Shown: piece after piece, positions 14,898 to 33,855 of the stretch
Position numbering within the stretch: the first letter of the stretch is position 1
How the letters are laid out: the number at the start of each line of letters is the position of its first letter
DNA from: an uncultured Gemmatimonadota bacterium
GTDB lineage: Bacteria > GCA-2686955
Reading direction: 5' to 3'
DNA length: 64,000 nucleotides
Assembly (NCBI GenBank): GCA_964490075.1
Contig: CAZBBK010000006.1
Span: 1-64,000, forward strand
Position numbers and translations under genes: made by a program
Notes under the pieces: model-generated
Database searches by the model: none
The model's input: the letters and a program-made list of their open reading frames with translations, nothing else
What the model was told of the DNA's origin: nothing

Positions 14898-15053
14898 GAT
14901 CAGGGTGCAATGTCGCATGGGCGGAAGAGCAGACGCAATGGTGGGTAAGAACCGACCCGCGGCCGTGGACTTTTTGACCCTCGTCCCGGTCGCGGAGGCC
15001 CATCGATCGTCGCAAGTGCTTGCCTGGCAAGGGCCGAAATGAGTGAGCGATCG

Positions 15054-15069
15054 CGGCACGGCTGCTGCA
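15054..15069 (+). promoter_or_regulatory. Sigma54-type promoter motif upstream of the lamin-tail gene
   Basis: CGGCACGGCTGCTGCA (GG-N10-GC), 12 nt before the ATG at 15082. Confidence 0.4.
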
Positions 15070-15081
15070 AGGCAGGACCGC

Positions 15082-15951
15082 ATGCGCACCGAGACCGCCG
15101 CCGCCCTGCTCTTCCTCTGCGCCGTTTCCACGGCCGCCCCGGCCGGCCTGGTGATCAGCGAGATCCTGGCCGGCCCGATCGAGGAGCCGGGCTCACCGGG
15201 AGCGCGCGAGTGGGTGGAGCTCTGGAACCGGGGTCCGGGAGCGATCGATCTCGAGGGCTGGAGCCTGAACGACGGCAAGGAGGATGATCTCCTGGTGGCG
15301 CTGGAGCCGGGCGGCGCGACGCTCTTGGCGCCGAGATGCTTCGCCCTGATCCTCGATCCCGACCGCCCGCCCCTCGATGCCCCGTGGCCGCGCGGCACGC
15401 TGCTGATGACGGTCGACGACCGATCGATCGGCAACGGTCTCTCGCCCTCCGATCGGCTGCGAATCGCCCCGCCCTTCGGCCGCGGGGCGGCCTGCTACTT
15501 TGCGGCCACCGAGCGCGCGCCGCCCGATCCCGGGCGCGGGCTCTCGATCGAGCGCGTCGATCTCGGTCGCGGCGGCTGCGAGGGCGACGAGGGTTGGCGA
15601 CCGAGCCGCCTGGTCGGCGGCACCCCTGGAGCCCTGAATTCCGCCGGACTCGAGATGGCGCGCGCGGATCTGGCGGGCGCACGGCGCTGGCTGTGGCGCT
15701 CGGGGGAGCTGGGACTCGATCTGAGCGCGTGGAGCGCGTCATGGATGGCCGGCGAGCGGTCGATCGCGCTGGGAGGCGGGGAGGGGAGGGCGCAGCTCCG
15801 AGCCGCCACCGCGGCGGACGGTTCGGCGACCCTCGCGCTGCGGCTGGGGCCCGACCCCGAAGGGCGGGTGCTGCACCTCTTCGTCGATCTGGGTCCGGGA
15901 TCGCTGCTGCCCGGGCGTTTCGGTGACGCGCCTATGGGTCCGGCTCGCTGA
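15082..15951 (+). CDS. Secreted lamin-tail domain (LTD) protein
   Basis: Signal peptide; LVISEIL...EWVELWN...IDLEGWSL...GTPGALNS, the same pattern as the LTD repeats in 17071-21585. Confidence 0.75.
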   Translation: MRTETAAALLFLCAVSTAAPAGLVISEILAGPIEEPGSPGAREWVELWNRGPGAIDLEGWSLNDGKEDDLLVALEPGGATLLAPRCFALILDPDRPPLDAPWPRGTLLMTVDDRSIGNGLSPSDRLRIAPPFGRGAACYFAATERAPPDPGRGLSIERVDLGRGGCEGDEGWRPSRLVGGTPGALNSAGLEMARADLAGARRWLWRSGELGLDLSAWSASWMAGERSIALGGGEGRAQLRAATAADGSATLALRLGPDPEGRVLHLFVDLGPGSLLPGRFGDAPMGPAR

Positions 15952-17074
15952 CGAAGGCGTGAGGCCGGATCTTCTCGAGCGTGGCGGGTCCGATTCCCTT
16001 TACCTCCGTCAGCTCATCCACCGAGCCGAAGAGGCCGTGCTGGGCGCGATGCTCCAGAATCCGCTGCGCCGTCACCGGCCCCACGCCAGGCAGGCGGTCG
16101 AGCTCCTCGGCGCCGGCGGTGTTGAGGTCGATCGGCTGGTCGGGAACGCTGGAGCCGCGGCTGGAAGCGGCCCGGAAGCGGGCCGGTGGACCGCCGAGCA
16201 CTGAGCCGTAGCGCAGCACCAGCCCCAGGCGCTGGGTGCCGCCCAGGCTCGGATGATCCACGAAGGCGTAGTCGAGCCGCACCCGATCGACGCGGGCCCC
16301 GAATCCGAGCGAGTAGGTCATCGGCATGCGCGAGTAGCCCGATTCGGGATCACCGACCGTGGCGGCGATTCCCGCCCGCAGCGCCAGCATCTCGTGAACC
16401 CGCAGCTCCTGCCCCACATGGAGCCGCGCCGGAAAGCCCTCTTCGAAGGCCAGGTCGGCGGCCAGCAAGATGCCACGCTCCACGTCGAACGCGATGCCGA
16501 GGCGCCCGGCACGCCCTGGCTCGATCCCGATCGCCCCGATGCTCGGTCCGTTGGCATGGCGCAACGTGGCGCCGAGGCGGATCCGGTCGGTGGTGCGGTA
16601 GAGCAGCCCGAGATCGATGCTCGGACCCCAGTCGGCGCCATAGGTCGGCCGGATATCGAGCCCCAGCAACGCCACCGACGCACCGACCAGGAATCGATCG
16701 TGCAGCTCGCGGGCGAAGGCCAGGCGCAGGCTCTTCTCGACGTAGTAGTCGGACCGGCCCAGAGTCGTAACGCCGACGCCGAAGGAGCCGAGCAGCGTCG
16801 GCTGGACCACCGCACACGCCATCTGGTCCAGGTTGCGCAGACCGAAGGGGCGCGCCACCTCCGCCACGACCTCGCCGCCGCTCAACAGACGCATCCCGGC
16901 CGGGTTCCAGAACAGGGCCGCGGAATCGTCGGCCAGCGCCGCGTGGGCTCCGCCGAGGGCCAGGGGACGGGCGCCGCGCTCGAGATCCTCGAAGGCGGCC
17001 CGGGCCGGGTCGGCCGCCAGCGCGAGCAGCAGAGCGAGCACGAGAGACGCGCGGGGGCAGGTTCGAGTCTTCAC
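15932..17074 (-). CDS. PorV/PorP-like outer-membrane barrel fused to a C-terminal ComEA-type helix-hairpin-helix domain
   Basis: Signal peptide; GARPLALGGA...ALFWNPAG barrel N-motif; C-terminal IDLNTAGAEELDRLPGVGPVTAQRI...VKGIGPATLEKI; GTG overlaps the upstream stop. Confidence 0.82.
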   Translation of the reverse strand: MKTRTCPRASLVLALLLALAADPARAAFEDLERGARPLALGGAHAALADDSAALFWNPAGMRLLSGGEVVAEVARPFGLRNLDQMACAVVQPTLLGSFGVGVTTLGRSDYYVEKSLRLAFARELHDRFLVGASVALLGLDIRPTYGADWGPSIDLGLLYRTTDRIRLGATLRHANGPSIGAIGIEPGRAGRLGIAFDVERGILLAADLAFEEGFPARLHVGQELRVHEMLALRAGIAATVGDPESGYSRMPMTYSLGFGARVDRVRLDYAFVDHPSLGGTQRLGLVLRYGSVLGGPPARFRAASSRGSSVPDQPIDLNTAGAEELDRLPGVGPVTAQRILEHRAQHGLFGSVDELTEVKGIGPATLEKIRPHAFVSEPDP

Positions 17075-20000
17075 CGCAGCGGCCTCGCAATCACCACGCT
17101 GCGCTTGGCGCGCAGCAGACGCTCCCCCTGCGCCTCGGCGAGCAGGATGTAGATGCCGACCTCCAGGCTGCGGCCGGCGTCGTCGGTGCCGTCCCAGACC
17201 AGCACACCGTTGGCGCTGCCGACCTCGTCGACCAGGGTGCGCACGGGGCGTCCGAGCGAGTCGAAGACCCGCAGAGTGAACACCGACTTCGAAGGCAGCC
17301 GGTAACGGATCGCCGCCACGTCCTGGAAGCCGTTGCCGTCGGGCGAGAAAGGGTCGGGCTCCACGTCGAGGGAGATTCCGGCCGAGAATCCGCCGGCCAG
17401 ACTGTTGGGCGCTCCGGGAGTCGACCCGGAGGGATCGACCGAGAGCCACCAGTTGGCGTCGCTGGCGGCGGTGGCGCCGGGATCGATCCGCTCCCACGAG
17501 CTGCCGGCCTCGAAATCCCTGCGGCCCCGCCACGCATCGTCGTAGGGGATCCGATCGACGACGAAGCCCTGCGGCTCGGCGAGCGCGATCACGTCGTCGG
17601 TGTTGTTCAGGGTCTCCCATCCGGTCGGCTCGAGGACCGGCACGTCGACCAGCGGAAAGGCGGCGCGCATCTTGTCGAGATCCTGGGTCAGCACCACGAA
17701 GGAGCCGGGCGCCATACGCAGCCGCTCCTGGTCCCCGAGCAAGGCGGCGCGGTCGGCGTCGTCGCCCAGCGTCCATCCTTCGAGATCGATGTCACGATCC
17801 GATGCGTTGAGGAGCTCGATCCACTCCGGCTGACCCAGCTCCTCGTCGGGCCGATTCATGAACTCGTTCACCACCAGCGCCACATCGACATCGCCAACCG
17901 CCAGATCGAGTCGGGCGCGGTCGTTGGTGGGACGGTCGTCGGCCGAGAGCCGCGCCACCACCCGGTGCCGGCCCTGCTCGAGCCCGCCTTCGAAAACGAT
18001 CTCGACCGAATCACCGGGATCGAGCGCCGCGATCTCCACCGGCCCACCCGCCAGCTCGGAGGGGTCGAGGATGTCGTCCAGGTCGGCGTCGACATAGAGC
18101 TCGATGCCGGCACCGCTCACCGAGGTGGTGCCGGCCACCGCCACCACCACCGTGAGCCCCAGATCCTCGAGCGGCCCGGCGGCCGGGTTGGCCGCGTAGA
18201 GGCGCTGGCACGACAGGTCGCTCGCCACCGGAGTCACCGAGTTGACCGATCCCGGCGTGAAGGTCGCGAGTGAACGTCTCCAGCCCGCCACCAGATCGGT
18301 GGCGCCCGGAAGGACGCGCTCCAGCGAGCGACCCTCCCCGGGGTCGAAGGGGAAACCGACGATCGAGGCGTCGCGCTCGAAGGGATCGTCCGAGTCGACC
18401 GGCGCGCCGAAGGTCGAAGCGACATCGGCCCGGCCGGTGCCGTCGGGGAAGAAGAGGGTGAGCGGCTCGGTGGTCGACAAGCCGGAGGTGGCGAGATCGC
18501 CGTCGCTCACGCCGACCACCAGCGTGCCGGGCGGCGGGTCGAGGGGCTGCGCGGCGTCGCGTGCCACGTAGTCCTGGTCGAGCACCAGGGCGTAGCCGCC
18601 CGGCGGCACGACCGTGGTGCCGGCGAGCGCGTCGGGATCGGCGAGATCGTCGTGGGTCCAGGCGCGCAGCGTGTCGACGCCGTCGCCGTCGCTCAGCATC
18701 CACCCGTCCAGGTCGATCGAGTCGCCCGAGGCGTTGTAGAGCTCGACCCATTCGTCGGATTCGCCCCCCGGAATCTCCGACTCCAGCCCCTCGGGATTGC
18801 TGACCACTTCGTTGATCACCACCACCAGCCCGAAGCGCCGCTCGACCACGTCGTTGTCGGGATTGAGATCGCCCGCGGCGCTCAGGGTGGCGCGCACCTC
18901 GGGAGCGCCCCCCGGATAGTCGCTCCAGTCGATCTCGACCGTCTCGACGGCGCCGGGCTCGATCACCGCGCTGGAGGCGGCGCCGATCGGCAGCAGCGAA
19001 TCGCCCAGCGAGTGCTCCAGAGTCACGCCGACCGGCCCCACGTTCTGGAGCCCTTCGTTGTGGACCGTGACGGCGATCCCGACCAGGTCGCCGGGCTGGG
19101 GGTCGGCGCTCAGCATGGCCACGTCACCGGCGCTGATCCCGGCGTCGACATCGAAAGGAGTGGCTGCGTTCTGCTTCCCCGGCGTGCCGCCGCTCGGCGA
19201 GACCGCCCAGTTGCTCTCGGCGTCGGGAAGTCGCGGATCGATCCGCTCCAGCGAACGGCCGTCGCCTGGATCGAAGGGGATTCCGTCCAGGTCGTCGTCG
19301 TCGCGCTCCAGCGGATCGTCGGCGTCGAGCGGGGTGCCGAAGGTGTCCAGGACATAGTCCCGGCTCTGGCCGCCCGCGTCATAGAGGGTCAGGGGATCGG
19401 TGGTGGCGAGCCCGTTGCCGAGCTTGGTGTCGCCGCTGGTGAGGATCAGCGCACCGGCCGCCAGGGCGTAGGGTTGCGGGCCGCCACGCTGCGGCGCCGC
19501 GTAGTCGGCGTCGAGGACGACCGCGAAGCCGCCAGCGGGCAGCAGCGTGGTGCCGGTGACGAGATCGGGCCCCTCCAGCTCACCGTGCTGCGCATCGTCC
19601 CAGGGCACCAAATCGTCCACCGCGTCGCCGTCCGATAGCGACCAGCCGGCGAGGTCGATCGCGTCGTCCCCCAGATTCTGGAGCTCGATGTACTCGTCGG
19701 CCACTCCGCCGGGGATTTCGGTCTCGCCTCCGGCCGGGTTGGACATCACTTCGGAGATGACCACCTCTTGCAGGCGCACCAGCACGCTGCGCTCAGCGGA
19801 GTCGTTGTCGGGATTCTGGTCGCCGGCGGTCGTCGCGGTGACGGAGAAGGTGTGGGAACCCTCGCTGATCGCCACGGCGGTCGCCGTCACCACGACCGAG
19901 TCGCCCGCGGCCAGATCGTTCAGCACCGATGAGTCGAAAGGCGCTGCGCCGTCGAGCGCGAAGTCGACATCGACGGTGGCGAGTGCCTCGATCCCCGCGT

Positions 20001-21585
20001 TGGTCACCAGCGCCGAAACGACCACGTCGTCGCCTGGCAGGGGCCGCGAAGGATCGAGGATCAGTCCCGCGAGCGGCACCGCCGCGTCGATGCCCAGGGG
20101 AGTCACCGAGTTGGCCGAACCGGGCGTGCCCCCCGGCAGCGAAACCGCCCAGTTGCCTTCTTCGTCGGCGCCGGCCGGGTCGATCCGCTCCAGCGCATTG
20201 CCGTCGCCGGGCCCGAAAGGGATGCCGTCCAGGCCGTCATCGTCGCGGTCCCCGGGGCTCTCCTCGTCCTTGGGAGTGCCGAAGGTGTCGATCACCTGGT
20301 CGCGACCGGTCCCCCCCGCCTCGTAGAGAGTCAGGGGGTCGGTGGTGGTCAGGCCGCCGCCGCCGCCGATATCCGAGCCGTCGACCGTCAGGATCACGGT
20401 GCCGGCGGGGATGGCATAGGGCTGAGGTTCTCCCCGTTCCTCCGACGCATGGTCGGGGTCGAGCACCAGCGCGTAGCCTCCGGCCGGGACCAGGGTCGTG
20501 CCGGTCACCAGACCGGGCGCCTCCAGCTCTCCATGGGTCTCGATTTGCCAGGCGATCAGCTCGTCGACCGCGTCGCCGTCGGTCAGGCTCCAGCCGGCCA
20601 GATCGACTTCGACAGCGCCGAGGTTCAGCAGCTCGACGTACTCGTCCGCCAGCCCACCCGGGATCTCGCCCTCGAAACCCGCGGGGTCGGCCATCACCTC
20701 GCTGATCGCGACCTCCGCCCGGCCAACCGTGACCGGACGATCGAGGCGGTCGTTGGCCGGATTCTCGTCGCCCGGCGCGTCGACCTCGACGGTCAGCGTG
20801 TGGGAGCCGGCGGCGGCATCGAGCCAGGTGGCCGCGACGGTGGCGGTGTCGCCCGGCGCCAGGTCGAGGATCGTGTCGGTCGCGAAGGCCGCCCCGCCGT
20901 CGAGCGCGAATCCGACTTCGGCCTGGTCGATGACTCGGATGCCGCCGTTCACGACGCCGACCTCGATCTCGATGTCGTCGCCAGGCAGCGGCATCGCCGG
21001 GATCAGGGTCAGCAGCTCGTCGAAAAGCGCCGCGTCGACATCGACCGGCGTCACCGAGTTCTTCGCGCCGGGCGTGACCCCATCGGGATCGACGCTCGCC
21101 GTCCAGTTGCTCGCGTCGTCGCCCGCCAGCGGCACGATCTTCTCTTTCGAGACACCGTCCTCGCCCCCGGACGACCAGCGGAACTTCCGCTCCCCTCCCA
21201 GGTCGTCGAGCACCGCCACCGAATCGCCGCTGTTGCCGAGCGACATCTTGATCTCGACCAGCGGCGTGCCGGGGGGCAAGGGCCACTGGCCGCGCAAGGT
21301 GGTCGAATCGTCGGCGATGACGACGAAGCCGAAGGGATCGATGGTGATCCCGCCGGGCAGAGCGGTGGTATCGGGCGACGAGCCGCCGTCGATCAGCTCC
21401 CAGCCGGTGAGATCGACGCTGTCGCCGCCGCCGTTGTGCAGCTCCACGAACTCCAGTTTGGTCTGGCTCCCCGGCTCGTTCACCAGCACCTCGTTCAGGA
21501 CCACTTCGCCACGATCGGCCGCCGCCGCCGATGCCAGCAGCCCCGCGCTCGCCGCCGCCACCCAGCGTCGCGCCCGGCCGCTCAT
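17071..21585 (-). CDS. 1504-aa secreted protein: 5 LTD + 4 CARDB-like Ig domains + FlgD/T9SS-like C-terminal domain
   Basis: Signal peptide MSGRARRWVAAA; five (V/I)xE(V/F)...E(Y/W/F)(V/I)EL.N...TPG..NS/NA units alternate with D.NP.ND Ig domains; tail PDPFSPDGNG...FDSLGRPVRTL...WDGTDDAGRSLEVGIYIL. Confidence 0.85.
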   Translation of the reverse strand: MSGRARRWVAAASAGLLASAAAADRGEVVLNEVLVNEPGSQTKLEFVELHNGGGDSVDLTGWELIDGGSSPDTTALPGGITIDPFGFVVIADDSTTLRGQWPLPPGTPLVEIKMSLGNSGDSVAVLDDLGGERKFRWSSGGEDGVSKEKIVPLAGDDASNWTASVDPDGVTPGAKNSVTPVDVDAALFDELLTLIPAMPLPGDDIEIEVGVVNGGIRVIDQAEVGFALDGGAAFATDTILDLAPGDTATVAATWLDAAAGSHTLTVEVDAPGDENPANDRLDRPVTVGRAEVAISEVMADPAGFEGEIPGGLADEYVELLNLGAVEVDLAGWSLTDGDAVDELIAWQIETHGELEAPGLVTGTTLVPAGGYALVLDPDHASEERGEPQPYAIPAGTVILTVDGSDIGGGGGLTTTDPLTLYEAGGTGRDQVIDTFGTPKDEESPGDRDDDGLDGIPFGPGDGNALERIDPAGADEEGNWAVSLPGGTPGSANSVTPLGIDAAVPLAGLILDPSRPLPGDDVVVSALVTNAGIEALATVDVDFALDGAAPFDSSVLNDLAAGDSVVVTATAVAISEGSHTFSVTATTAGDQNPDNDSAERSVLVRLQEVVISEVMSNPAGGETEIPGGVADEYIELQNLGDDAIDLAGWSLSDGDAVDDLVPWDDAQHGELEGPDLVTGTTLLPAGGFAVVLDADYAAPQRGGPQPYALAAGALILTSGDTKLGNGLATTDPLTLYDAGGQSRDYVLDTFGTPLDADDPLERDDDDLDGIPFDPGDGRSLERIDPRLPDAESNWAVSPSGGTPGKQNAATPFDVDAGISAGDVAMLSADPQPGDLVGIAVTVHNEGLQNVGPVGVTLEHSLGDSLLPIGAASSAVIEPGAVETVEIDWSDYPGGAPEVRATLSAAGDLNPDNDVVERRFGLVVVINEVVSNPEGLESEIPGGESDEWVELYNASGDSIDLDGWMLSDGDGVDTLRAWTHDDLADPDALAGTTVVPPGGYALVLDQDYVARDAAQPLDPPPGTLVVGVSDGDLATSGLSTTEPLTLFFPDGTGRADVASTFGAPVDSDDPFERDASIVGFPFDPGEGRSLERVLPGATDLVAGWRRSLATFTPGSVNSVTPVASDLSCQRLYAANPAAGPLEDLGLTVVVAVAGTTSVSGAGIELYVDADLDDILDPSELAGGPVEIAALDPGDSVEIVFEGGLEQGRHRVVARLSADDRPTNDRARLDLAVGDVDVALVVNEFMNRPDEELGQPEWIELLNASDRDIDLEGWTLGDDADRAALLGDQERLRMAPGSFVVLTQDLDKMRAAFPLVDVPVLEPTGWETLNNTDDVIALAEPQGFVVDRIPYDDAWRGRRDFEAGSSWERIDPGATAASDANWWLSVDPSGSTPGAPNSLAGGFSAGISLDVEPDPFSPDGNGFQDVAAIRYRLPSKSVFTLRVFDSLGRPVRTLVDEVGSANGVLVWDGTDDAGRSLEVGIYILLAEAQGERLLRAKRSVVIARPLR

Positions 21586-22823
21586 GGTCCGACCCCTTCG
21601 ATGACGCGGAATCCGCTGCCGTCCGACACCACGATCAGGGTTCCCTCCTCGTCGGTGCGCCGCACCTCCACGCCTGCGTCGGACCAGCGCTGCACGGCGC
21701 CCGGATCGGGATGCCCGAAGGAGTTGTCGGCGCCGACCGAGATCAGCGCCAGCTCGGCGTCGACAGCGGCCACGAAGGGCGCCGACGAGCTGAAGGCCGA
21801 GCCGTGGTGGGGCACCTGCACCACCTCCACGTCGAGCTCGGCCGCCGCGCGCTCCACCAGCTCGCCCTCGGTCTCGGTCCCGATGTCGCCGGTGAGCAGC
21901 ATCTCGAACTCCCCGAACTCCACCCGCGTCACCACCGAGAGCTCGTTCAGCTCGTCCTCCTCGGCGTCGCACTCGGTGCTCAGCGAATCGGCCGGATTGA
22001 GCACCGACAGACGGCTCTCGGCATCGATCTCGAGCTCGCGCCCGTCGGCGACGTTGTGCACCTCGAGCCCGCCGGCATCGACCAGGCTGTCGACCACCGC
22101 GTGCAGCTCGGCGAGGTCGGCGCCGCCCGCGGCACGCCGGCAGCTGCGCCACAGGGTCTGCACCGGAATCCCCCGCAGCACGGAGATGAGCCCGCCGTAG
22201 TGGTCGCGGTCCTGGTGCGTCGAGACCACCAGGTCGAGGGCGTTGACCTCGGCGCTGCGCAAGTACTGCAGCAGCCCCGGTCCCTCCTCCGGCTCCCCCC
22301 CGTCCACCATCACCTTCGGCCCCTCCGGGAACTCCACCAGGATCGCGTCGCCCTGCCCCACGTCGATCATGTGGACACGGATCTCGTCCGCCCCCAGGGC
22401 CGTGACCCTGACCCCCGCCTGGTCGTTGGAGGGGTCGTCGTCGTCGGCTTCGAGGCGTGCCAGGAAGCGATGTTCCCCCGCCGGAATCGAGTCGAGGCGG
22501 GTCGCGACCGTGAGCGAGTCGCCGGAGCTCAGCACGACGATTTCGCTCGCCTCGCCGAGCAGCTCCTCGGCGGACCCGATCTCGTCGGCGTCGGCGTCCA
22601 GGAAGAAGCTGAGCAGGGCGTGGGTGGCCAGCTCCGCACCCTGGTTGGTCACCGTGGCCTCGAGCAGCACGCTGCGGCCGACGGTGGCCGGCGACGGGCT
22701 CGCCGCCAGGCGCGTCAGGGCCAGATCGAAGGTGGAGACCTGGGGCGCGGCCGGCTCGCGCGCGCAAGCCCCGAGCACGATCAGCGACGCGATCGCCGCC
22801 CCGCTCCCTCGCCGCCCCCTCAT
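21582..22823 (-). CDS. Lipoprotein: CARDB-like Ig + ComEC-type metallo-beta-lactamase domain
   Basis: Lipobox LGAC; DVGQGDA, THQDRDHYGG, LTGD, VPHHGS, NSFGHP and RTD motifs; no membrane channel domain. Confidence 0.85.
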   Translation of the reverse strand: MRGRRGSGAAIASLIVLGACAREPAAPQVSTFDLALTRLAASPSPATVGRSVLLEATVTNQGAELATHALLSFFLDADADEIGSAEELLGEASEIVVLSSGDSLTVATRLDSIPAGEHRFLARLEADDDDPSNDQAGVRVTALGADEIRVHMIDVGQGDAILVEFPEGPKVMVDGGEPEEGPGLLQYLRSAEVNALDLVVSTHQDRDHYGGLISVLRGIPVQTLWRSCRRAAGGADLAELHAVVDSLVDAGGLEVHNVADGRELEIDAESRLSVLNPADSLSTECDAEEDELNELSVVTRVEFGEFEMLLTGDIGTETEGELVERAAAELDVEVVQVPHHGSAFSSSAPFVAAVDAELALISVGADNSFGHPDPGAVQRWSDAGVEVRRTDEEGTLIVVSDGSGFRVIEGVGP

Positions 22824-23098
22824 GACGCGCCCCCCTCCGCTTCGCCGTCCTCCGCCTCGCGCGTCATTTCGAGCAGCCTTCGCTGCAGCTCGGAGGTGCG
22901 CCCGCGCAGCGCCGCTTCCCGATCGGGGTCGCGCTGCAGCGTGATCTTCAAACAGGCGCCTTCGCCCGCCCCTTCCGGCAAGCGCTGCTGGGGCAGCAGC
23001 AGCTCCCCGCCGCCGACGATGGCGATCACCGCCCGCCCCTCCTCGATCCGATCCACGGCCGCCGCCAGCACTCGTCTCCCATCGCCGTCTTCGGTCAT
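22820..23098 (-). CDS. DUF3006-like small protein
   Basis: AVDRIEEGRAV...LPEGAGEG..L plus C-terminal helix; ATGA overlaps at both ends. Confidence 0.75.
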   Translation of the reverse strand: MTEDGDGRRVLAAAVDRIEEGRAVIAIVGGGELLLPQQRLPEGAGEGACLKITLQRDPDREAALRGRTSELQRRLLEMTREAEDGEAEGGAS

Positions 23099-26003: not shown

Positions 26004-26012
26004 CGGCGCGCG

Positions 26013-27134
26013 CTATCTCAGCAACATCAGCGTCAAGACCCGCTCGGAGCCGCCCCGGGTGCTCAGACGACATCGATAGACCCCGCTGGCCAGCGCGGAT
26101 GCGTGCCACTCGAGACGATGCTCGCCGGCCGGGCGTGGCGCGTCGCGCAGCGGTGCATCGACCAGCCGTCCGCTCAGGTCGTGGATCTCGATCGTGATCC
26201 GTGCCGGCGCCGCCAAGGAGTAGGAGATCGACACCCGCGGATTGAAGGGGTTGGGACTGGCGGCTAGGGCCGTGATCGCCGCGCTCGGAGGAGCTTCCCG
26301 CCCGCCGGCATCGTCCTCCACCCCCGAGGGACTCCAGAAGTAGGCACGGCGCACCAGGGTGGTGTCGACCACGAAGGGGTTCGGCTTCTGGTCCTGGTGG
26401 ACGGCGATCAGCTCGGTGCGCGTCGCCTCCCAGGCGTCGACCGGATCGAGCGCGTGCCAGTCCCGCAGCGCGCTCTTCTGCTTGGAGAAGAAGTAGGGGT
26501 CGGCGCTGTCGGCCTGCTCCTGGTACATCGTGTAGAAGTAGAACATCGCCCGTGCCACGTTCCCCTTGTGGTCCTCGCGCGGCTCGAAGCGGACGTTCTG
26601 CTGCTCCTCGCTGTACTCGTCGATGTGGGTGAAGGGGACGTAGTCGATGTCGTAGTCGAGCCGCCACCAGCGATCGGCGTGGGGATCGTAGACCTCGCCG
26701 AAGGCCAGGCTGCCGCGAGCGGAGTTTGTCACGTCGCGGGTCGGGAAAAGGTGGTGCATGTCGGCCCTGGCCTGGCCGCTGGCGCCCTTGCTCTGGGGCC
26801 AGGTGTGCTCGGTGTTGATGCCGCGGCTCTCGGCGTAGCTCGAGGGGTCGCTGCCGGGATCGATGTAGATCGTCAGGCCGGTGTAGACGCAGGTCAGCGA
26901 GTCCTGGTGGTTGTCGATCTCGCCGAAGAGCTCGTCCTTGGCGTCGCCGTAGCTCAAGGTCTGGCCTGGCTTGTAGGAGCCGAACAGGGCGTCGAGCAGA
27001 TCGTCGCCGTAGAGATCGGGGAAGATCGGCGTGTCCTGGGCCTGGAGCGGAGAGGCCCGGAGCAGCAGGCAGCAGCCGGCCGCAAGCAGTTTGACGAGAG
27101 GGCTCTGGGGAATGGAGATCGGCACGGTGGGCAC
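26013..27134 (-). CDS. Secreted endonuclease I family (His-Me finger) nuclease with FlgD/T9SS-like C-terminal domain
   Basis: Signal peptide; NTEHTWPQS, DMHHLFPT...NSARG, FEPREDHKGNVARAMFYF, NPFV; tail PNPFNP...IHDLSGRLV...LASGVY. Confidence 0.88.
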   Translation of the reverse strand: MPTVPISIPQSPLVKLLAAGCCLLLRASPLQAQDTPIFPDLYGDDLLDALFGSYKPGQTLSYGDAKDELFGEIDNHQDSLTCVYTGLTIYIDPGSDPSSYAESRGINTEHTWPQSKGASGQARADMHHLFPTRDVTNSARGSLAFGEVYDPHADRWWRLDYDIDYVPFTHIDEYSEEQQNVRFEPREDHKGNVARAMFYFYTMYQEQADSADPYFFSKQKSALRDWHALDPVDAWEATRTELIAVHQDQKPNPFVVDTTLVRRAYFWSPSGVEDDAGGREAPPSAAITALAASPNPFNPRVSISYSLAAPARITIEIHDLSGRLVDAPLRDAPRPAGEHRLEWHASALASGVYRCRLSTRGGSERVLTLMLLR

Positions 27135-27176
27135 TCCTGGCGGCGATCTTCAGAGTAACCGCCGCCGGGCGCCGGA

Positions 27177-28562
27177 TCAGAATCCGAAGGTCAGCGCCGC
27201 CGTCACCCGGAAGAGCCGCTCCTCCACACGCTCGCGTTCGGTGCGCGGTTCGGCGGCGAAGAACAGATCGTTGATCGGATCGTCGTCGCGATAGGCCGCG
27301 TAGCCGAGGGCCCCCGCCACGTCGATCGTGGCCGGGCCGGCGCTGAGTTGGGTTCCCGCGCTGAAGCCGACCCGGTTGCGTTCGGCACCCGAGTAGGGCG
27401 CGCCGTAGGTGAAACCGAAGCGGAAAGGCGTGCCGCCCGGCAACAGGTGCTCGACCCCGAGCCGGTAGCGAGTCAGATCTTCCGGATCACGCGAGCTCAG
27501 CACATCTCCGTCGCTGGCCCAGGGCTCGTAGTCGACCTGGAACGCGAGGACCGTGCGCACCTCGTTCACCGGATGGAAGAGCAGGCCGACCGAGTGCCGC
27601 GGCGGGATCTTCGACTCCAGCGTGACCTGCTCGGTGGCAACGGAATCGCCCACCGTGGTGGTCCGGGAATCGTCGAAGTCGAGCGCCACGCCGGAGCGGA
27701 AGGCGTAGGCGAGCTCGAAGCGCTGCTCGAAGGCGAGGCGCAGGCCGCCGGTGAACGCCGTCGCCGTGGCCTCGATCTGGTTCTCCACGCTCCAGTCGGG
27801 ATAAGGAAGCAACGGCTCGTCCCAGACGATTTCGCCGGTGATCTGGTCGACGATGGTCACCGGTTCGTAGGTGACCGCCAGCTCGTTCGAGATCTCGGCC
27901 ATCAGGTAGTCGACACCGGCACCCACGGCAAGCGCCCAGCGATCGTTCGCGAAGAGCTCGTGCCCGAGCGAGAACACCGCCCGATCGATCCCCCCGCTCT
28001 GGACGAAAGAATTCGAGGCCAGCGGCAGGTCGGTGTAGTCGCCGACGATGTTCTGCGCCGGCAGCATTTCGCGGACGTCGTCGGGGAAGAACGAGACGAA
28101 CTGCCAGGGCGACAGGATTTGTTCTCGATAGGTGTAGTCGGCGACCCGCGCCGGCCGATAGGCCAGCCCGAGCACCGGCAGCTTCGGATGCACCGCCCAG
28201 GCCGCCGTCACCCCCGGGTAGCCATAACGGTGGGAGTTGAGGGCGTAGATGTTGTCGGTCAGGTAGCCGGAGAACGAGTCGTGCACCGGGTAGGAGCGAC
28301 GCTCGTCGTTGGCGTCGAGCATGCCCAGAATCTGCACCTCGACCCCTTCGTGCCCCGCCAGCGCCGCCGGGTTGGCTCCCACCGCCGCCGCGCCGCGCGC
28401 CACGGTCATTCCGGTGCCGCCCAAGGCCGTCTCGCGCGCGCCGGCGTCCTCGAAAGCTGTTCCCAGGTCCCACTCCGAGTTGGGAGCGGGGCGCGCCACG
28501 GTCGCCATGCTCAGGCCGGCGATGGTCGTGCGGAGGATGCGGATCTTCATTGGCGTCACCAT
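27177..28562 (-). CDS. FadL/PorV-like outer-membrane beta-barrel protein
   Basis: GARETALGG...NPAAL N-motif, amphipathic strands, terminal Phe (LTFGF); alternative start at 28550. Confidence 0.72.
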   Translation of the reverse strand: MVTPMKIRILRTTIAGLSMATVARPAPNSEWDLGTAFEDAGARETALGGTGMTVARGAAAVGANPAALAGHEGVEVQILGMLDANDERRSYPVHDSFSGYLTDNIYALNSHRYGYPGVTAAWAVHPKLPVLGLAYRPARVADYTYREQILSPWQFVSFFPDDVREMLPAQNIVGDYTDLPLASNSFVQSGGIDRAVFSLGHELFANDRWALAVGAGVDYLMAEISNELAVTYEPVTIVDQITGEIVWDEPLLPYPDWSVENQIEATATAFTGGLRLAFEQRFELAYAFRSGVALDFDDSRTTTVGDSVATEQVTLESKIPPRHSVGLLFHPVNEVRTVLAFQVDYEPWASDGDVLSSRDPEDLTRYRLGVEHLLPGGTPFRFGFTYGAPYSGAERNRVGFSAGTQLSAGPATIDVAGALGYAAYRDDDPINDLFFAAEPRTERERVEERLFRVTAALTFGF

Positions 28563-31057
28563 GTGTAGTCCAGCTGCAGCCGGAACTGGGTCGATTCGCT
28601 GAGCTCCAGAGGAGCGTCGTTTTCTTTCGATGCGAACTCGAACTCGCCGTTGTAGTAGCGCGCGTCGCGCCAATTGGTCGGGTTCTCGCGGTGCCAGGCC
28701 ACCTTCATGTAGAGCGAGAGATGGTCCGAGAGACGGTCCCAGATCGACACCCAGGCGCGCGTCCCTTCGCCGTCCACCACCAGGAACTCGGTGTCCTCGA
28801 AGTTCCAGAAGAAGCCCTTGAAAGCGGTGGCGCCGGCGCGCAGCTTGAGCCGCTCGTTGACTCGATGATCGACCACGGTTCCGAGAGCGATCGAGGGCTC
28901 GGTCTCCGACCCTTGCAGGGGCACGCGCTCGTCCTGGTCGGTCTCGCGGTAGATCGGCCCGCCCTCCTCGGTGCCGGCCAGGCGCCCGCGCGAGGGCCAC
29001 CGAGTGTGGCCGATGTGATACAGAAACTCGATTCCGTTGCGGTCCGACAGAAAGAGCCGCAGGCGGATGCGATCCTCGATCGTCTGGCTGATCTCGATCG
29101 TCTCGCGGAACCCTTCCTCGTTGCGCGACTGCCATTTGTGTCGCCACTGGATGCGCAGGGGCCAGGTCGGCTGGAACTCGAGCCGAGGCACGATGCGCTT
29201 GAACGCTGATCCGTCCGACTTGCGCAGCCAGGTCGAGTAGTCGACCGTCGCCAGCAGCATGCGGTGCAGGCGGAATCGGGTCGATCCGTAGAAGCCGCGC
29301 TCCGGCGCCGGCTGGGCGCTGTTCACGAAGAGCTCCGCCATCAGCGGATTGGTCAGCCGGAAGGGATCCTCGAAGAGTGTGCCGTCGTAACGCTCCTTCT
29401 CGCTGAAAGCGCGGTTGAAGGGATTGTCGTAGTCGACGTCGTAGTCGCGGTACAAGAGGAGCAGGTTCAGATTCGACCACTGGGCGAAGGCGCTGGCGAT
29501 GAACGCATCGCCGGCGCCGAGCTGCTTGGCGTATTCGACTTGCCCGACCGCGTTCTTCCACACCACCTGGGCGTCGCCGCCCACCACCCGCCGGAACTTC
29601 CCCTCGAGCTGGTTGGCCAGCAGATACTCGTTGTCGATGGGGCCGATCTCGTCGCGGGCGTCGTCCAGAATCACGCCCTCGTAGGAGGGCAGAAAGAAAC
29701 GATCGTAGAGCGACTCGTAGCCGGTGACCGCCAGGTGGGTGCCGGGGGCGAGCTCGTAGCGGATGCTGCCGCCCCAGGTGGTCTCGTTCACCGAGTCGGC
29801 GGCGATATAGGCGTCGCTGGAGTCGAGCTGCGAGGGATGCAGTCCGAGCGTGTCGGGCAGATCGGCGGAGTCGAGCTTGGGATCGAGGGTGATCAGCGCC
29901 TGCACCTGACCCGCGGCATCCAGGATCGCGTCACGATCGTCGCTCGACCAGAAGCCGATGATGCGCCAGTCGTTCCACGCCATCTGCGCCGCCGCTCCGC
30001 GGAACGCGTGCTGGTCGGTGCGGCTGATGTCGCCGAGAATCCCCTGCTGGCGCTTGTCGAAGATCAGCCCGCTCTTGCGCGGCCGATAGAAGTCGGTGTT
30101 CTCGAGGATCAGTCCCCGGCCCATCGCCAACGAGTAGTTGCCGGCCACGAAATGCTCGAGCGTGAAGGGACCGAGGGCGCGGTGCCTGGTTCCCAGGTAG
30201 CCCTTGAGCGTGCCGTTCAAGTCGCTCTCGAAGGCGCGCCGGTGGGTGATCAGGCCCGCTTCCCAGGTCTCCCCCACGCGCCCGCGAATCTTCGTCGTCA
30301 CCTCGGGATGCTGCTCGTCGAGTCCGAGCAACGAGTAAGCGTCGCGTACGAACTGTTGATTGTAGTAGGTGGAGTCGTTGTCGGCGGCGTACAGGTCCTC
30401 GCGATAGAGCTCTTCGCTGTCGGTGATGGTGAGCGGACGGGTGATGCGCACTTGCGCGTCGCCGCTGAAGCCGCGCCCGATCTCGTCCTGGTAGCGCACG
30501 TAGTCGCGCACCGAACGCCAGCCGTAGTACGAAAGCCCCGGTGTGCTGCGCAGGTCACGCGCCGACTTGATGTTCTCGCCGCCGCGCACATGGCGCACGA
30601 TCGCCGCGGCATCGATCGGCGACACTCCGGGAAGCGACTGCAGACGGTCGGTGCTGGCCGTCGCCAGAGTGATCGGCACTCGTAGCTGGTCGATGTAGTT
30701 GTCGATCAGCGCCTCGTTGGCCCCCTCTTGCGAGGTGAGGTTGGCGATGCTGGTGTAGAGTCGATCGAGGCGCTGCACGTCGAGGCCGCGCCCCTGCTCC
30801 GGCAGAATCGCCACGCGCTCGCGCAACCGCAGCAGCATCGGCTGCGTCAGTCCTGGAACCAGGCGCAGATCGTAGAACGACTCGAAGGCACCCTGGTAGG
30901 TCAGCCGCTCGAGCAACGCGTCGGTCACGTCGTCCGGCAGGCCCAGGGTGCGGATCTCGTCGGGAGAGGCGTTGTTGAGGTCGAGCGGGGGCACCGCATG
31001 GGCGCCGGTCGCGACCAGCAAAGCCGCGACGCAGACGTTGACCCTCAGGGCGCGCAT
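28556..31057 (-). CDS. Tandem HhH domains + large predicted outer-membrane beta-barrel
   Basis: Signal peptide; LDLNNAS...FESFYDLRLVPGL and LATAS..RLQSLPGVSPIDAAAIV HhH units; aromatic-rich strands; terminal beta-signal FRLQLDYTW. Confidence 0.8.
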   Translation of the reverse strand: MRALRVNVCVAALLVATGAHAVPPLDLNNASPDEIRTLGLPDDVTDALLERLTYQGAFESFYDLRLVPGLTQPMLLRLRERVAILPEQGRGLDVQRLDRLYTSIANLTSQEGANEALIDNYIDQLRVPITLATASTDRLQSLPGVSPIDAAAIVRHVRGGENIKSARDLRSTPGLSYYGWRSVRDYVRYQDEIGRGFSGDAQVRITRPLTITDSEELYREDLYAADNDSTYYNQQFVRDAYSLLGLDEQHPEVTTKIRGRVGETWEAGLITHRRAFESDLNGTLKGYLGTRHRALGPFTLEHFVAGNYSLAMGRGLILENTDFYRPRKSGLIFDKRQQGILGDISRTDQHAFRGAAAQMAWNDWRIIGFWSSDDRDAILDAAGQVQALITLDPKLDSADLPDTLGLHPSQLDSSDAYIAADSVNETTWGGSIRYELAPGTHLAVTGYESLYDRFFLPSYEGVILDDARDEIGPIDNEYLLANQLEGKFRRVVGGDAQVVWKNAVGQVEYAKQLGAGDAFIASAFAQWSNLNLLLLYRDYDVDYDNPFNRAFSEKERYDGTLFEDPFRLTNPLMAELFVNSAQPAPERGFYGSTRFRLHRMLLATVDYSTWLRKSDGSAFKRIVPRLEFQPTWPLRIQWRHKWQSRNEEGFRETIEISQTIEDRIRLRLFLSDRNGIEFLYHIGHTRWPSRGRLAGTEEGGPIYRETDQDERVPLQGSETEPSIALGTVVDHRVNERLKLRAGATAFKGFFWNFEDTEFLVVDGEGTRAWVSIWDRLSDHLSLYMKVAWHRENPTNWRDARYYNGEFEFASKENDAPLELSESTQFRLQLDYTW

Positions 31058-31995
31058 CAGAACTCGACTCCCACGCCAATGAAGTGCGACGCCGGTAAGA
31101 TCGGATGATCGCCGAAGGCGTAGTCCAGGACGAAATGACCGAAGCCGATCCGCGCTCCGCCCGAGAAGCGCGCCGGCTCCGACCCGACGCCCACTCTGAG
31201 CGTCAAGGGATCGGCGATCCGGTACTCCACCCCGGCCCGCAGCCGCGCCGGCTCTTCGCCCGAGGCCACTTCGACCTCACCGGTCGTGATCACGTCGGGA
31301 TAGGGCTCGTAGGTCGCTCCCAGCACGAGCTCCTCGAGGAGCTGAACACTGTCGGTATCGCCGAGCGAGGGACGATTGACGTTGCGCAGCACCGCGCTGA
31401 GCGCCGTGCGGCTCTCCAGCAGGGCACGCACGCCGACGTCGACACCTATTGTCGCGCCGCTGCCCAAGTCGATTCCGCCCACGTAGGACTCGGTGGCCGG
31501 CACGTAGGTTCCGGCCGAGGTTCCGAAGTCGAGCTGGTGGAAGTGCGCCGTCCAGCCGATCGCCAGGCTGGAGTGCACATCCTCCAGCACCGTGATCCCC
31601 TGGCCGACCGACACCGTCAGCTCGGTCGACAGATTGTCGCCGGCACCGGACTCGGTCGAAAACACCCGCACCCCGGCCGCCAGGCCGCCGAAGCGCCCGG
31701 TGGAGATCCCGCCGTAGGCCAGGTTGTGGCTCAGGAAGTCGAAGTTGCCGATCCGGTTGTGGCTGAAGGCCACCTGTGGGGTCGCGAGCTCCACCAGGGC
31801 GGCCGGGTTGTAGTAGAGCGCCGATGCATCGGTGATCAGGGCGCTGGCCGCGTCGCCGACGGCGATCGCCCGCGGTGTCGGTCCCTCGAGGTCGAACGCC
31901 GCCCGGGCCGGGCCGGCCGCGACGGTTGCAACGGTTGCGACGATCACCAAGGCGACCGCGGTCCTGGAAATTCGATCAGTCAAGGCGGGCTCCAA
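31057..31995 (-). CDS. PorV/PorP/PorQ-like outer-membrane barrel
   Basis: Signal peptide; PRAIAVG...ALYYNPAAL; LDYAF..HP.L; terminal Phe; clear paralogue of the barrel part of 15932-17074. Confidence 0.8.
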   Translation of the reverse strand: MEPALTDRISRTAVALVIVATVATVAAGPARAAFDLEGPTPRAIAVGDAASALITDASALYYNPAALVELATPQVAFSHNRIGNFDFLSHNLAYGGISTGRFGGLAAGVRVFSTESGAGDNLSTELTVSVGQGITVLEDVHSSLAIGWTAHFHQLDFGTSAGTYVPATESYVGGIDLGSGATIGVDVGVRALLESRTALSAVLRNVNRPSLGDTDSVQLLEELVLGATYEPYPDVITTGEVEVASGEEPARLRAGVEYRIADPLTLRVGVGSEPARFSGGARIGFGHFVLDYAFGDHPILPASHFIGVGVEF

Positions 31996-33646
31996 TCACG
32001 ATCGGCGCCGATGCCGAGCTGGTCGATCCGTCGCCGGTCTGCGAGGCTCGAACATTGACGACATAAGTGCCTGCCTGCAGCCGCTGGTTCAGGCGGTCGC
32101 GGCCGTCCCAGTAGAGATCGCGGTTGCCGTAGGGTGGAGCGTTGGCTCCTTCGTGCAGCGTGGCCACCGCGCGCCCGGTCACGTCGAAAACCTGTATCCA
32201 GACATAGCTGGCGGGAGGCGCGTTCCACACCACTCGCACCCTCTCGCCGGCGCGCGGAGCGAACAGAGGTCGCGGCACACTCACCGTTGCCGTCGCCACC
32301 TCCAGCGTGTCGAGCCCGTCCGGCGGCGTGCCGGCCAGGTTCAGATCATCCTGGTAGGCGAGGAGCACCTGAAATGCGTCGTTGTAGACCGAGCCGATTC
32401 CGGTCACTTCGATCAGCTGGTCGCGCGTCACGTTCTGTTCGATGTAGTCGCCCAGGTTGGTGGTATCCCAGACCCGCATCGTGGTGCTCCCCGAGCCGTC
32501 CGAGAGCGGCACGTTCCAGCCTCCGCCAGCGTTCGACGGCGTCTCCGTCACCCAGCCGTTGACGGTGATCAGAGTTCCGTCCCACGCGAAGGAGCTCGAC
32601 TCGCGAACCGTCAGCAAACGCGCCGCCGGCAGCTCGGCACCGGTGGAGATCACAGTGATGTCGGTGAGGTTGGTGAGCTCGGTGGTACCGTAGAGATTCG
32701 GCTCGCTGATGTAGTCCTCGACCACGCCGGTGATGCACACCTCGGTACCGCGCACCAGGTCGGCGCGCGGATCGAAGTCGAACACATTGATCCCCTTGCC
32801 AGACTCGTCCTGCACGTAGATCGAGGTGAAATCGTCGCGAATCAGGCCGTAGCCGACCGTCACCACCCCGCGAATCGTCACCTCTCTGCCGTCCCACAGG
32901 TGCAGGCTGTCCTGGATCGCCGCGATCGGCGTCGGATCGTCGCAGGTGCCGGGCTCGATCGTGCCGCCGGACCAGGGTCCGCCGACCCACAGGTCTTCCT
33001 GGTCGACCAGCAACACCTGGAAGTCCGAGTCGTAGGGGGAAACGATCCCTTTGACGCTGATCGAGTCGCCCTCGTCGACGGCGCCGAGGTCGATGCCGAT
33101 GGAGTCCCAGACCCGCACGGTGATCTGGCCGCTGCCATCGTCCACGGAGACGTTCGATCCGCCGCCGGCCGAGAAGATCGGCTCGGTCACCTGCCCGGTG
33201 ATCTGCACGTAGCGACCTTCGTGCTCTTCATCGTTGGCCGCCGCGGTGGTGAGCTGCGCGGGCGTCGGAAGCGGCTGCCCGGTGGCTTCGACCGAGGGCG
33301 CCGACGAGGGGATGATCTCGGTGGTCGGGTAATCGTTACCGCCCTGGTAGTCCTCGATCTCGCCCGTGACCTTGATCCGGTCGCCGCGGTTCCACGGGTA
33401 GAGATTGTTGTAGTCGAAGACCTGGATGCCCCAGCCGGAGTCGTCCTGGATGTAGACCGAGGTGCGGCCGGGCCAGAGGTCGCCGTTGTCCCCCAGGCTG
33501 ACTCCCTCGACCGTCACCGTTTGGCCGTCGTAGTGGGAGATGCTGTCCTGGATGTTGGCGATCGGGATGATGGTCTGGGCGGTCGCCGCTGCCCAGGCCG
33601 TGGCGAGGCAGAGGGGCAGGGCGAGGTGCAGCCTGTGGAGTCGCAC
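31976..33646 (-). CDS. Secreted protein with four OB-fold (nucleic-acid-binding-like) repeats + FlgD/T9SS-like C-terminal domain
   Basis: Signal peptide; duplicated pair PIA.IQDS...DG..VT..GV...Y.QD.SG.GI.VF / ..DGSG...RVWD; tail VFDVTGRAVATL...WDGRD...LQAGTYVV. Confidence 0.78.
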   Translation of the reverse strand: MRLHRLHLALPLCLATAWAAATAQTIIPIANIQDSISHYDGQTVTVEGVSLGDNGDLWPGRTSVYIQDDSGWGIQVFDYNNLYPWNRGDRIKVTGEIEDYQGGNDYPTTEIIPSSAPSVEATGQPLPTPAQLTTAAANDEEHEGRYVQITGQVTEPIFSAGGGSNVSVDDGSGQITVRVWDSIGIDLGAVDEGDSISVKGIVSPYDSDFQVLLVDQEDLWVGGPWSGGTIEPGTCDDPTPIAAIQDSLHLWDGREVTIRGVVTVGYGLIRDDFTSIYVQDESGKGINVFDFDPRADLVRGTEVCITGVVEDYISEPNLYGTTELTNLTDITVISTGAELPAARLLTVRESSSFAWDGTLITVNGWVTETPSNAGGGWNVPLSDGSGSTTMRVWDTTNLGDYIEQNVTRDQLIEVTGIGSVYNDAFQVLLAYQDDLNLAGTPPDGLDTLEVATATVSVPRPLFAPRAGERVRVVWNAPPASYVWIQVFDVTGRAVATLHEGANAPPYGNRDLYWDGRDRLNQRLQAGTYVVNVRASQTGDGSTSSASAPIVIGARLD

Positions 33647-33855
33647 GCGTTTGTTCCGGTCGAGGTGAAGGGATCGATTACGAGACGCGAGAGACTAACA
33701 CCCTCGACGACACGGCGCCGGTTCGTTTCGGAGCCGCAAGACCTGAACGGCGTCAACCATTGTTTACAACCGCGTGCCGTCTTGGACCGTTCCGAGATCG
33801 CCATCGTCACCCTAACCAATTCATTATAAACGCTTTATGTCTATCGCTCCAAGGT

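Follow-up and report, generated by a model that had tools for sequence, protein, structure and literature searches.

In the sea as in sediments, extracellular DNA (eDNA) forms a large reservoir of phosphorus, nitrogen and carbon. Two routes are known by which DNA passes an outer membrane, one through a type IV pilus and secretin and the other, in Bacteroidota, through a TonB-dependent transporter with a DUF5689 protein; its passage in diderm bacteria outside Proteobacteria and Bacteroidota is, to our knowledge, largely unknown. An operon in the genome of an uncultured Gemmatimonadota bacterium raises the question of whether there is a further route. It occupies positions 33646 down to 15932, on the minus strand, of a 64,000-nucleotide stretch of DNA (the window; NCBI GenBank assembly GCA_964490075.1, contig CAZBBK010000006.1, positions 1 to 64,000). 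In a preliminary description made from the sequence, its eleven genes had been proposed to encode a surface system that binds, cuts and imports DNA without a pilus. Our analysis makes it probable that the locus is a nutritional system with which a high-GC marine bacterium of the Fibrobacteres-Chlorobi-Bacteroidetes (FCB) group, bearing a type IX secretion system (T9SS), scavenges eDNA and perhaps also RNA. Crossing of the outer membrane with neither a pilus nor a TonB-dependent transporter is part of this reading, the best that the sequences allow us. The functional side of the earlier proposal is thus upheld by the domains, by the HIN/RPA-like fold of one product, g10, and by the conserved neighbours of a gene core; its claims that the kind of system is new and that eleven genes form the unit are not.

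Genes and products of the operon

The genome (G000) measures 5.7 Mb in 136 contigs, is 95% complete and has about 70% G+C; the window is its C6:1-64000, and the organism is known solely as a metagenome-assembled genome (MAG). The stretch is present in four DNA runs, all marine metagenomes of one study, one of which may be its source. Since high G+C fills raw lists of open reading frames (ORFs) with shadow ORFs, we called genes from a plot of third-position G+C per frame (GC3) and from start-codon listings. Domains were annotated with Pfam and NCBIfam, and export signals were judged by eye from the N-termini. The genes, in the order g10-g9-g8-g7-g6-g5-g4-g3b-g3-g2-g1, are the following.

31976..33646, minus strand: g10, 556 aa, signal peptide, secreted candidate DNA-binding cargo
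31057..31995, minus strand: g9, 312 aa, predicted PorV/PorQ-like (FadL-superfamily) outer-membrane barrel
28556..31057, minus strand: g8, 833 aa, signal peptide, two ComEA-type helix-hairpin-helix (HhH) modules, then a predicted outer-membrane barrel
27177..28562, minus strand: g7, 461 aa, predicted FadL/OmpP1/DUF5723-like outer-membrane barrel, C-terminus ...TFGF
26013..27134, minus strand: g6, 373 aa, predicted secreted endonuclease I with a T9SS-type C-terminal tail
24894..26003, minus strand: g5, 369 aa, lipoprotein with a ComEC-type metallo-beta-lactamase (MBL) nuclease domain
23095..24897, minus strand: g4, 600 aa, second HhH protein with a putative barrel
22820..23098, minus strand: g3b, 92 aa, DUF3006 protein (Pfam, 6.8e-12) without a signal peptide
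21582..22823, minus strand: g3, 413 aa, lipoprotein (lipobox) with an Ig/CARDB-like domain and a ComEC-type MBL domain
17071..21585, minus strand: g2, 1504 aa, predicted T9SS cargo with five lamin-tail domains (LTD), CARDB/DUF11 Ig domains and a FlgD_ig tail
15932..17074, minus strand: g1, 380 aa, predicted PorV-like barrel fused to a C-terminal ComEA HhH domain

Consecutive genes overlap by 20, 1 and 7 nt, are then separated by gaps of 42 and 9 nt, and overlap by 4 nt at each of the last five junctions, exactly as had been claimed for eleven co-directional, coupled genes with overlaps at eight of ten junctions. Export signals had been claimed for ten products, and ten of the eleven N-termini indeed look signal-like, the exception being g3b. 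The OB, HhH, endonuclease I, ComEC-type MBL and LTD/CARDB domains named earlier were all recovered, and every product other than g3b has a nucleic-acid-related or an outer-membrane/secretion domain. A scan of positions 15000-34500 for sigma-70 promoters and intrinsic terminators returned no promoter-like and two terminator-like sites, fewer than in shuffled sequence, with a model that suits this lineage poorly.

All the evidence indicates a nucleic acid as the substrate, that from g10 included. The protein consists of two HIN-like tandem-OB units (four OB folds; DUF5689) and ends in a FlgD_ig/T9SS-type sorting domain. Pfam matched the OB-fold family tRNA_anti-codon at 1.2e-16 and DUF5689 at 1.5e-10 (41.8 bits against a cut-off of 28.6), the sole DUF5689 match in the whole genome. 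An AlphaFold2 (AF2) model (pLDDT 89.2) consists of two repeats of two OB-like barrels followed by an Ig-like tail. Its top Foldseek match was the complex of p204 HINab with dsDNA (3.8e-11), and further matches included RPA, RADX, CST, telomere end-binding proteins and the HIN domains of p202, IFI16 and AIM2. The PorU-type C-terminal domain of g10 is common to more than 20 proteins of the genome.

Three barrel genes follow. The product of g9 matches PorV_fam of NCBIfam at 7.4e-9 (35.6 bits against a cut-off of 90). In g8, HHH_3 was found in two stretches (2.7e-11; 43.8 bits against the Pfam cut-off of 27), the modules lying at residues ~25-190. An AF2 model of g8 built with 20 homologues (pLDDT 72.6, pTM 0.69) is helical over residues 25-190 and has about 24-26 long strands over 252-832. 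When this model was compared with the PDB, Foldseek returned just generic large barrels (SlpA, the FimD usher, TonB-dependent receptors, MtrB and AlgE; TM 0.2-0.3), which argues that the g8 barrel belongs to no described family; going by the model, the family appears undescribed. Pfam at E<=10 likewise gave no barrel family for g8 or g4, and no TonB-dependent receptor domain in g8. A complex prediction for the g8 barrel (192-833) with g9 (30-312), each entered as an alignment and run without control pairs, scored 0.00. For g7, language-model features gave an Atlas score of 0.98 with FadL/DUF5723 clusters; its profile matches were weak (Toluene_X in Pfam, BamG in NCBIfam, PorV_fam at 23.2 bits). 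The five predicted barrels of the preliminary description can be retained as predictions, on the g8 model, the Atlas score of g7, the sub-cut-off PorV_fam matches of g9 and g1 and, for g4, a crude beta-amphipathic signal.

A check of the genome for T9SS core genes, suggested in the same description, found SprA (522 bits summed) and PorU (439 bits) with an adjoining PorV; a search for GldM gave no match, as in the control genomes. With these genes and with FlgD_ig or Por_Secre_tail C-termini, g10, g6 and g2 have the features of T9SS cargo. PorV_fam (NF033709) has 12 matches in the genome, and five other genes pass its cut-off of 90 bits. Two further cargo or transport loci lie elsewhere in the genome, at C11:81166-87129 and C59:31185-36423, where the genes for a TonB-dependent barrel and a full-scoring PorV-family protein are a few kb apart.

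Such a genome invites the explanation that the operon merely handles T9SS cargo: g9, g8, g7, g4 and g1 would secrete or anchor it and do nothing else, DNA products would enter by other porins, and the HhH modules would be structural. The PorV/PorQ likeness of g9 and g1 suits this account, as do the 12 PorV_fam matches beside many proteins with the C-terminal sorting domain. It fits poorly with g8, which is far larger than PorV/PorP-type anchors, has no structural relative among them and belongs to a family in which 21 of 22 members retain the HhH domain (PF12836). The barrel-plus-HhH theme is moreover repeated in g1 and g4. We consider this explanation quite unlikely.

Predicted nucleases occupy the middle of the operon. 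The g6 protein matches Endonuclease_1 above cut-off (1.1e-24) and Por_Secre_tail at 3.7e-5, and weakly resembles Vvn (1oup). The g5 protein matches TIGR00361 at 1.4e-48 over profile positions 440-663 and the ComEC nuclease domain in the PDB (9ic4) at 5.5e-56; it retains the metal motifs HxHxDH and HHG, and its lipobox, LVAGC, is visible. The match of g3 to TIGR00361 is 3.8e-33. The g3b gene overlaps the start of g3 by 4 nt, and its product is the sole one without an export signal. In the cytoplasm it may inhibit or chaperone the adjacent MBL nuclease. A literature search for DUF3006 found no paper using the term, and no solved relative was found.

The MBL domains of g5 and g3 also cross-match LmuA, Avs1a and PDC-M48B at 1e-13 to 1e-19, and NCBIfam offers Avs1a and 6A-MBL, as would be expected if the operon were a defence at the cell envelope, destroying the foreign DNA of phages or plasmids before it enters the cell. 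The ComEC matches just given are far stronger, six of eight scanned proteins have no PADLOC match, no sensor or NTPase partner is encoded, and all the enzymes are exported. PADLOC matched the MBL fold only, and we rejected defence, which we regard as highly improbable.

The distal genes repeat features of the proximal ones. In g4, HHH_3 is found below cut-off (5.2e-5), and hhalign (92%) shows homology between its N-terminal HhH region and that of g8; the alignment of g4 with the g8 family covered this region and not the barrel. The C-terminal 460 aa of g4 have the highest beta-amphipathic (alternating-hydrophobic) signal of the eleven proteins (z 5.2) and resemble uncharacterised proteins of Zixibacteria and Cloacimonadota. 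By these alignments g4 looks like a shorter, diverged counterpart of g8. The g2 protein matches LTD in five stretches (9.6e-65), CARDB (1.3e-19) and FlgD_ig (2.6e-6). In g1, the ComEA domain is matched by HHH_3 (9.5e-22), by comEA TIGR01259 (7.7e-20) and, marginally, by TIGR00426 (53.3 bits against a cut-off of 53.1), and the barrel by PorV_fam (8.7e-15; 55.1 bits, under the cut-off of 90). This barrel shares 27-31% identity with members of the g9 family, to which it is paralogous. At a dozen loci in other genomes (L021, L025, L032 and L050 among them), tblastn aligned g1 without a break from the g9 homologue into the first HhH of the g8 homologue, which gives g1 the look of a fusion that arose when a g9-g8 junction was duplicated. 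From such alignments, the core may have been duplicated in part to give the distal half of the operon.

A four-gene core and its neighbours

Which of these genes travel together? Among 41 genomes, g8 has matches in nine: G000 itself, all four of the closest and three distant genomes, all full-length, and one with a weak match to the HhH region only. The related genome G002 has all eleven genes in identical order at 54-84% identity, and this shared order argues that the operon is not a chance assembly. In G004, of the same class, and in the three distant genomes just g10-g9-g8 is kept, accompanied by g7 in two of the four.

A scan with one genome per species identified 481 stretches that encode a g8 relative, of which the best 80 were kept, representing 79 distinct loci. 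Submitters' lineage labels are available for 46 of the 79: 11 Krumholzibacteri-, 10 Gemmatimonad-, 9 Eisenbacteria, 1 Effluviviaceae, 4 Zixibacteria, 4 Calditrich-, 3 Fibrobacter-, 1 Latescibacterota, 1 Ignavibacteria, 1 Alphaproteobacteria and 1 Saccharimonadales. Counting those of the 79 best of 481 that have enough flank, g9 stands immediately upstream of the g8 homologue at 72/73 loci, a g10-like gene upstream at 64/64 and g7 downstream at 63/68, although the loci are the closest of the 481 and kin to one another, so that these and the following fractions are not independent trials and overstate the independence of the evidence. In a wider search, of 1.84 billion cluster representatives, the g8 profile matched 170 clusters at E<=1e-30, a good number of which are fragmentary; at 1e-10 there were 2965 clusters and at 1e-3 there were 20991, which we take to be mostly HhH-only.

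On this synteny the conserved unit is the four-gene core g10-g9-g8-g7, found across FCB-group phyla in lineages that are for the most part uncultured. The gene order that the preliminary description proposed is therefore conserved elsewhere in part: the core recurs in many phyla and all eleven genes in G002, while the other seven genes were found only within the genome's own family and the operon as a whole is not the unit.

What accompanies the core bears on its role. We clustered 926 flanking ORFs and annotated the cluster representatives. A UshA-like 5'-nucleotidase lies directly 3' of g7 at 47/61 loci. A UgpB-like substrate-binding protein is present at 21/48 loci and two ABC permeases at 18/48 and 20/48; the binding protein (L046:710-2008, whose cluster occurs at 27 loci) is closest to UgpB (1.2e-44, below cut-off), and its likeness to this glycerol-3-phosphate binder hints at the import of a phosphorylated product. 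A ComEC-type MBL gene is near the cassette at 25/79 loci, or 17/39 of those with full flanks, and several LTD/OB T9SS cargo proteins recur there. All other clusters represent housekeeping functions (RsgA, Mrp/ParA, M20 and M50 peptidases, a ClpX-like ATPase and a heptosyltransferase). Among the annotated conserved neighbour families of the 79 loci there is no ComEC, ComF or DprA.

In the window, the usual partners of the cassette are found 5-9 kb from it, and a further LTD gene adjoins g1.

38643..39980, minus strand: satellite MBL, third ComEC-type MBL lipoprotein (TIGR00361, 7.8e-24; HxHxDH kept)
39996..41651, plus strand: satellite 5'-nucleotidase, exported, UshA-like (1.3e-53), with Metallophos and 5_nucleotid_C
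41724..42581, plus strand: satellite LTD protein, 285 aa, exported (signal-like N-terminus), LTD at 9.6e-11
15043..15951, plus strand: small LTD gene convergent with g1, LTD at 4.7e-8 (33.8 bits against a cut-off of 34.3)

The satellite MBL is the genome's best match to the MBL found with the cassette in other phyla, the satellite 5'-nucleotidase is 37% identical over its full length to the one 3' of g7 in those phyla, and the small LTD gene is kept in G002. Judged by these matches, the system extends beyond 15932-33646 to the LTD gene at 15043-15951 and to the MBL/5'-nucleotidase/LTD module at 38643-42581.

We rejected an 840-aa ORF at 12912-15434 as a twelfth gene: its first ~180 codons are off the coding-signal frame and overlap the plus-strand LTD gene. 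From about codon 180 it reads as a multi-pass membrane protein of ~660 aa (12912-~14900, minus strand) with no Pfam match. Beyond it, adjacent radical-SAM/SPASM proteins (10617-12911, plus strand, and 9358-10608, minus strand) stand beside a GT4 glycosyltransferase and may form a peptide-maturation or modification cluster. On the other side, two right-handed beta-helix/Chlamydia-PMP-repeat proteins (33760-36851, plus strand) diverge from the operon and are followed by a short-chain dehydrogenase (36719-37714), and a TrkA/TrkH potassium-uptake pair (42697-45670, plus strand) lies directly 3' of the satellite LTD gene.

The company of HhH and DUF5689 proteins would also suit DNA uptake for natural transformation, in which the OB protein captures dsDNA, HhH barrels import it and unlinked ComEC and DprA finish the task, a parallel to the pilus-independent system of Riemerella anatipestifer. 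DUF5689 and HhH proteins are essential there, in a system related to the ddb genes discussed below. Three proteins of the locus contain ComEA-type HhH, and ComEC-type nuclease domains are present as well. Indeed, a search of the genome for comEC and dprA, also proposed in the preliminary description, found a full ComEC (PF03772, contig C2) and DprA (PF02481, C31). These lie outside the window, as do five secretins (on C97, C29, C90, C36 and C9), ten pilin-type motifs and the ten TonB-dependent barrels (PF00593) of the genome, none of which is on C6; family searches thus bear out that ComEC channel, DprA, secretin, pilin and TonB-dependent barrel are absent from the window. The same description had listed SusC/SusD as absent; the window has no TonB-dependent barrel and hence no SusC-like transporter, SusD itself not having been searched for. 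The locus therefore has the ComEA-type HhH of transformation systems (in g1 and g8) and lacks a linked ComEC channel, DprA and pilus or secretin.

Against transformation stand the non-specific endonuclease I, the frequent 5'-nucleotidase and the ABC importers alongside, the absence of comEC, comF and dprA from the annotated conserved neighbours, and the secretins and pilin-like genes with which this genome could serve a classical route. We rate it as unlikely to be the role of the locus. Since the cassette's enzymes (endonuclease, ComEC-type nucleases and 5'-nucleotidase) destroy DNA, and an importer of phospho-compounds is found alongside, the nutritional reading is preferred. The two roles are not exclusive, and a g8-type conduit could serve both feeding and gene acquisition.

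A candidate route across the outer membrane

If the locus is a scavenging system, how might it work? First, the T9SS would export the cargo g10 with its four OB folds, g2 with its five LTD and the endonuclease I g6, and the neighbouring barrels g9, g1 and g7 would hold them on the surface through their C-terminal domains. Each cargo gene adjoins a PorV/FadL-like barrel gene (g10-g9, g6-g7 and g2-g1), which suggests dedicated anchoring; in Porphyromonas, PorQ holds PorZ on the surface. Second, the OB and LTD domains would capture DNA, and endonuclease I, the MBL lipoproteins g5 and g3 and the MBL at 38.6 kb would cut it. Third, the large g8 barrel, and perhaps g4, would let fragments through the outer membrane, while the fused HhH modules and the ComEA domain of g1 would bind the incoming strand in the periplasm and bias its entry, making pilus and TonB unneeded. 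Fourth, the periplasmic or exported 5'-nucleotidase would free phosphate and nucleosides, and a UgpB-like ABC importer is found in the same cluster of other phyla. Finally, g3b might keep the neighbouring MBL nuclease in check, or chaperone it, until export.

The first two steps could also be taken for adhesion to, and remodelling of, an eDNA matrix, with LTD/CARDB and OB cargo tying the cell to eDNA of biofilms or particles, nucleases trimming the matrix and barrels only anchoring the cargo. The 1504-aa g2 is an adhesin-like repeat protein, the pairing of every cargo gene with a barrel gene is as expected, and ExeM-type LTD/OB nucleases and a ddbF homologue have been linked to biofilms. Adhesion leaves unexplained the HhH modules fused to barrels, whose N-terminal position would put them in the periplasm, as well as the conserved 5'-nucleotidase and ABC importer beside the cassette, and we hold it to be distinctly improbable.

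The third step of the scavenging route is a narrower claim. That the g8 barrel is the conduit and its fused ComEA-type modules a periplasmic binding ratchet is a tentative proposal, based on the modelled size of the barrel, the retention of HhH in the family and the general rule that N-terminal extensions of outer-membrane barrels stay periplasmic. We are comparably cautious about a broader possibility, that the g8 family forms a new class of TonB- and pilus-independent nucleic-acid conduits which, with PorV/FadL-like partners and HIN-like cargo, provide a common route for DNA or oligonucleotides in many FCB-group phyla. If the g8 barrel is a conduit, it would constitute a third outer-membrane route for nucleic acids, furnish a genomic marker for DNA foragers in metagenomes and offer a simple passive-ratchet model testable in vitro.

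Several points, besides the kinship of the sampled loci, weigh against scavenging by this route. We know of no FadL/PorV-type barrel that carries nucleic acids, and HhH, OB and LTD folds are not confined to DNA-binding proteins. The matches of g9, g1 and g7 to PorV/FadL models all fall below curated cut-offs, and the putative barrel of g4 is read from the crude beta-amphipathic signal alone. The first metal motif of g3 is a variant, HxDxDH, where g5, the satellite MBL and two homologues of other phyla have HxHxDH. The ABC importer is unlinked here, its best matches in this genome being on other contigs, and the substrate-binding protein is unlike nucleoside binders. Finally, no RNA run is listed as containing the stretch.

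Relation to known systems

The preliminary description considered the kind of system a candidate for an undescribed one. This no longer holds, since loci for DNA use or uptake are already in print: ddbABCDEF of Bacteroides thetaiotaomicron (2025), the Riemerella genes and the loci of Candidatus Izemoplasmatales.

The components compare as follows with the textbook systems. The HhH of g1 and g8 is of the ComEA type, and the MBL domains of g5, g3 and the satellite gene are of the ComEC C-terminal nuclease type; in contrast to ComEA and ComEC, the HhH here is fused to outer-membrane barrels and the MBL is a free lipoprotein without the ComEC channel. The g9 and g1 proteins resemble PorV/PorQ of the T9SS, and the cargo sorting domains resemble that of the genome's own PorU, but both barrels score well under the PorV_fam cut-off, and no described PorV known to us carries a ComEA domain, unlike g1. 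Nuclease activity of the ComEC MBL domain has been reported (PMC8579336).

The ddbABCDEF genes are required for DNA depletion; they encode three nucleases, the TonB-dependent transporter DdbC and a DUF5689 protein, DdbD, likened to the HIN domain of p202, and are described as resembling a polysaccharide utilization locus (PUL), as related to the R. anatipestifer transformation genes and as occurring within Bacteroidota (Sharan et al., bioRxiv 10.1101/2025.03.18.642099). Like ddb, the locus here unites secreted or lipoprotein nucleases (predicted: g6, g5 and g3), a DUF5689 HIN-like surface protein and an outer-membrane transporter candidate in one PUL-like, pilus-free arrangement, and the fold matches of g10 are the same likeness as was reported for DdbD. 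It differs in having no TonB-dependent transporter; PorV-like, HhH-fused ~24-26-strand and FadL-like barrels stand in place of DdbC. T9SS sorting takes the place of SPII anchoring for its cargo, additional components are ComEC-type MBL nucleases, endonuclease I, LTD proteins and ComEA modules, and the cassette is found in FCB phyla other than Bacteroidota, the phylum from which that account reports ddb.

In R. anatipestifer, RA0C_RS04920 (DUF5689), RA0C_RS04915 (a TonB-dependent-like barrel) and RA0C_RS02645 (HhH) are essential for transformation (Huang et al. 2021, PMC8459023). There too a DUF5689 surface protein gene stands beside an outer-membrane barrel gene, an HhH protein is needed and DNA passes without a pilus. 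However, the Riemerella barrel is of the TonB type with a carboxypeptidase-regulatory domain and the HhH protein is separate and unlinked, whereas here HhH is fused to barrels; and mutants assign the Riemerella genes to transformation, whereas the company of endonuclease I and 5'-nucleotidase here points to catabolism.

Also comparable are the 'DNA-degradation loci' of Candidatus Izemoplasmatales, foragers of DNA in marine sediment, which bring together extracellular nucleases, 5'-nucleotidases, ABC importers and a large nucleic-acid-binding, lamin-tail (LTD/OB) protein (Wasmund et al. 2021, PMC8289736). These organisms have no outer membrane and hence no barrels, T9SS or ComEA-barrel fusions, and the likeness is one of described contents. 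In a survey of activated-sludge MAGs, at least two secreted nucleases were noted for single MAGs of Krumholzibacteriota and of Eisenbacteria.

We found no description of the HhH-fused-barrel architecture in the literature, the supplementary homologue tables of the ddb and Riemerella papers lying outside the search. Going by the sequences compared, what appears new is that an HhH-fused barrel, PorV/FadL-like barrels and T9SS sorting replace the TonB-dependent transporter. The locus would thus keep the DUF5689/HIN-like binder of the Bacteroidota systems and swap their transporter for a barrel that carries its own ComEA-like modules.

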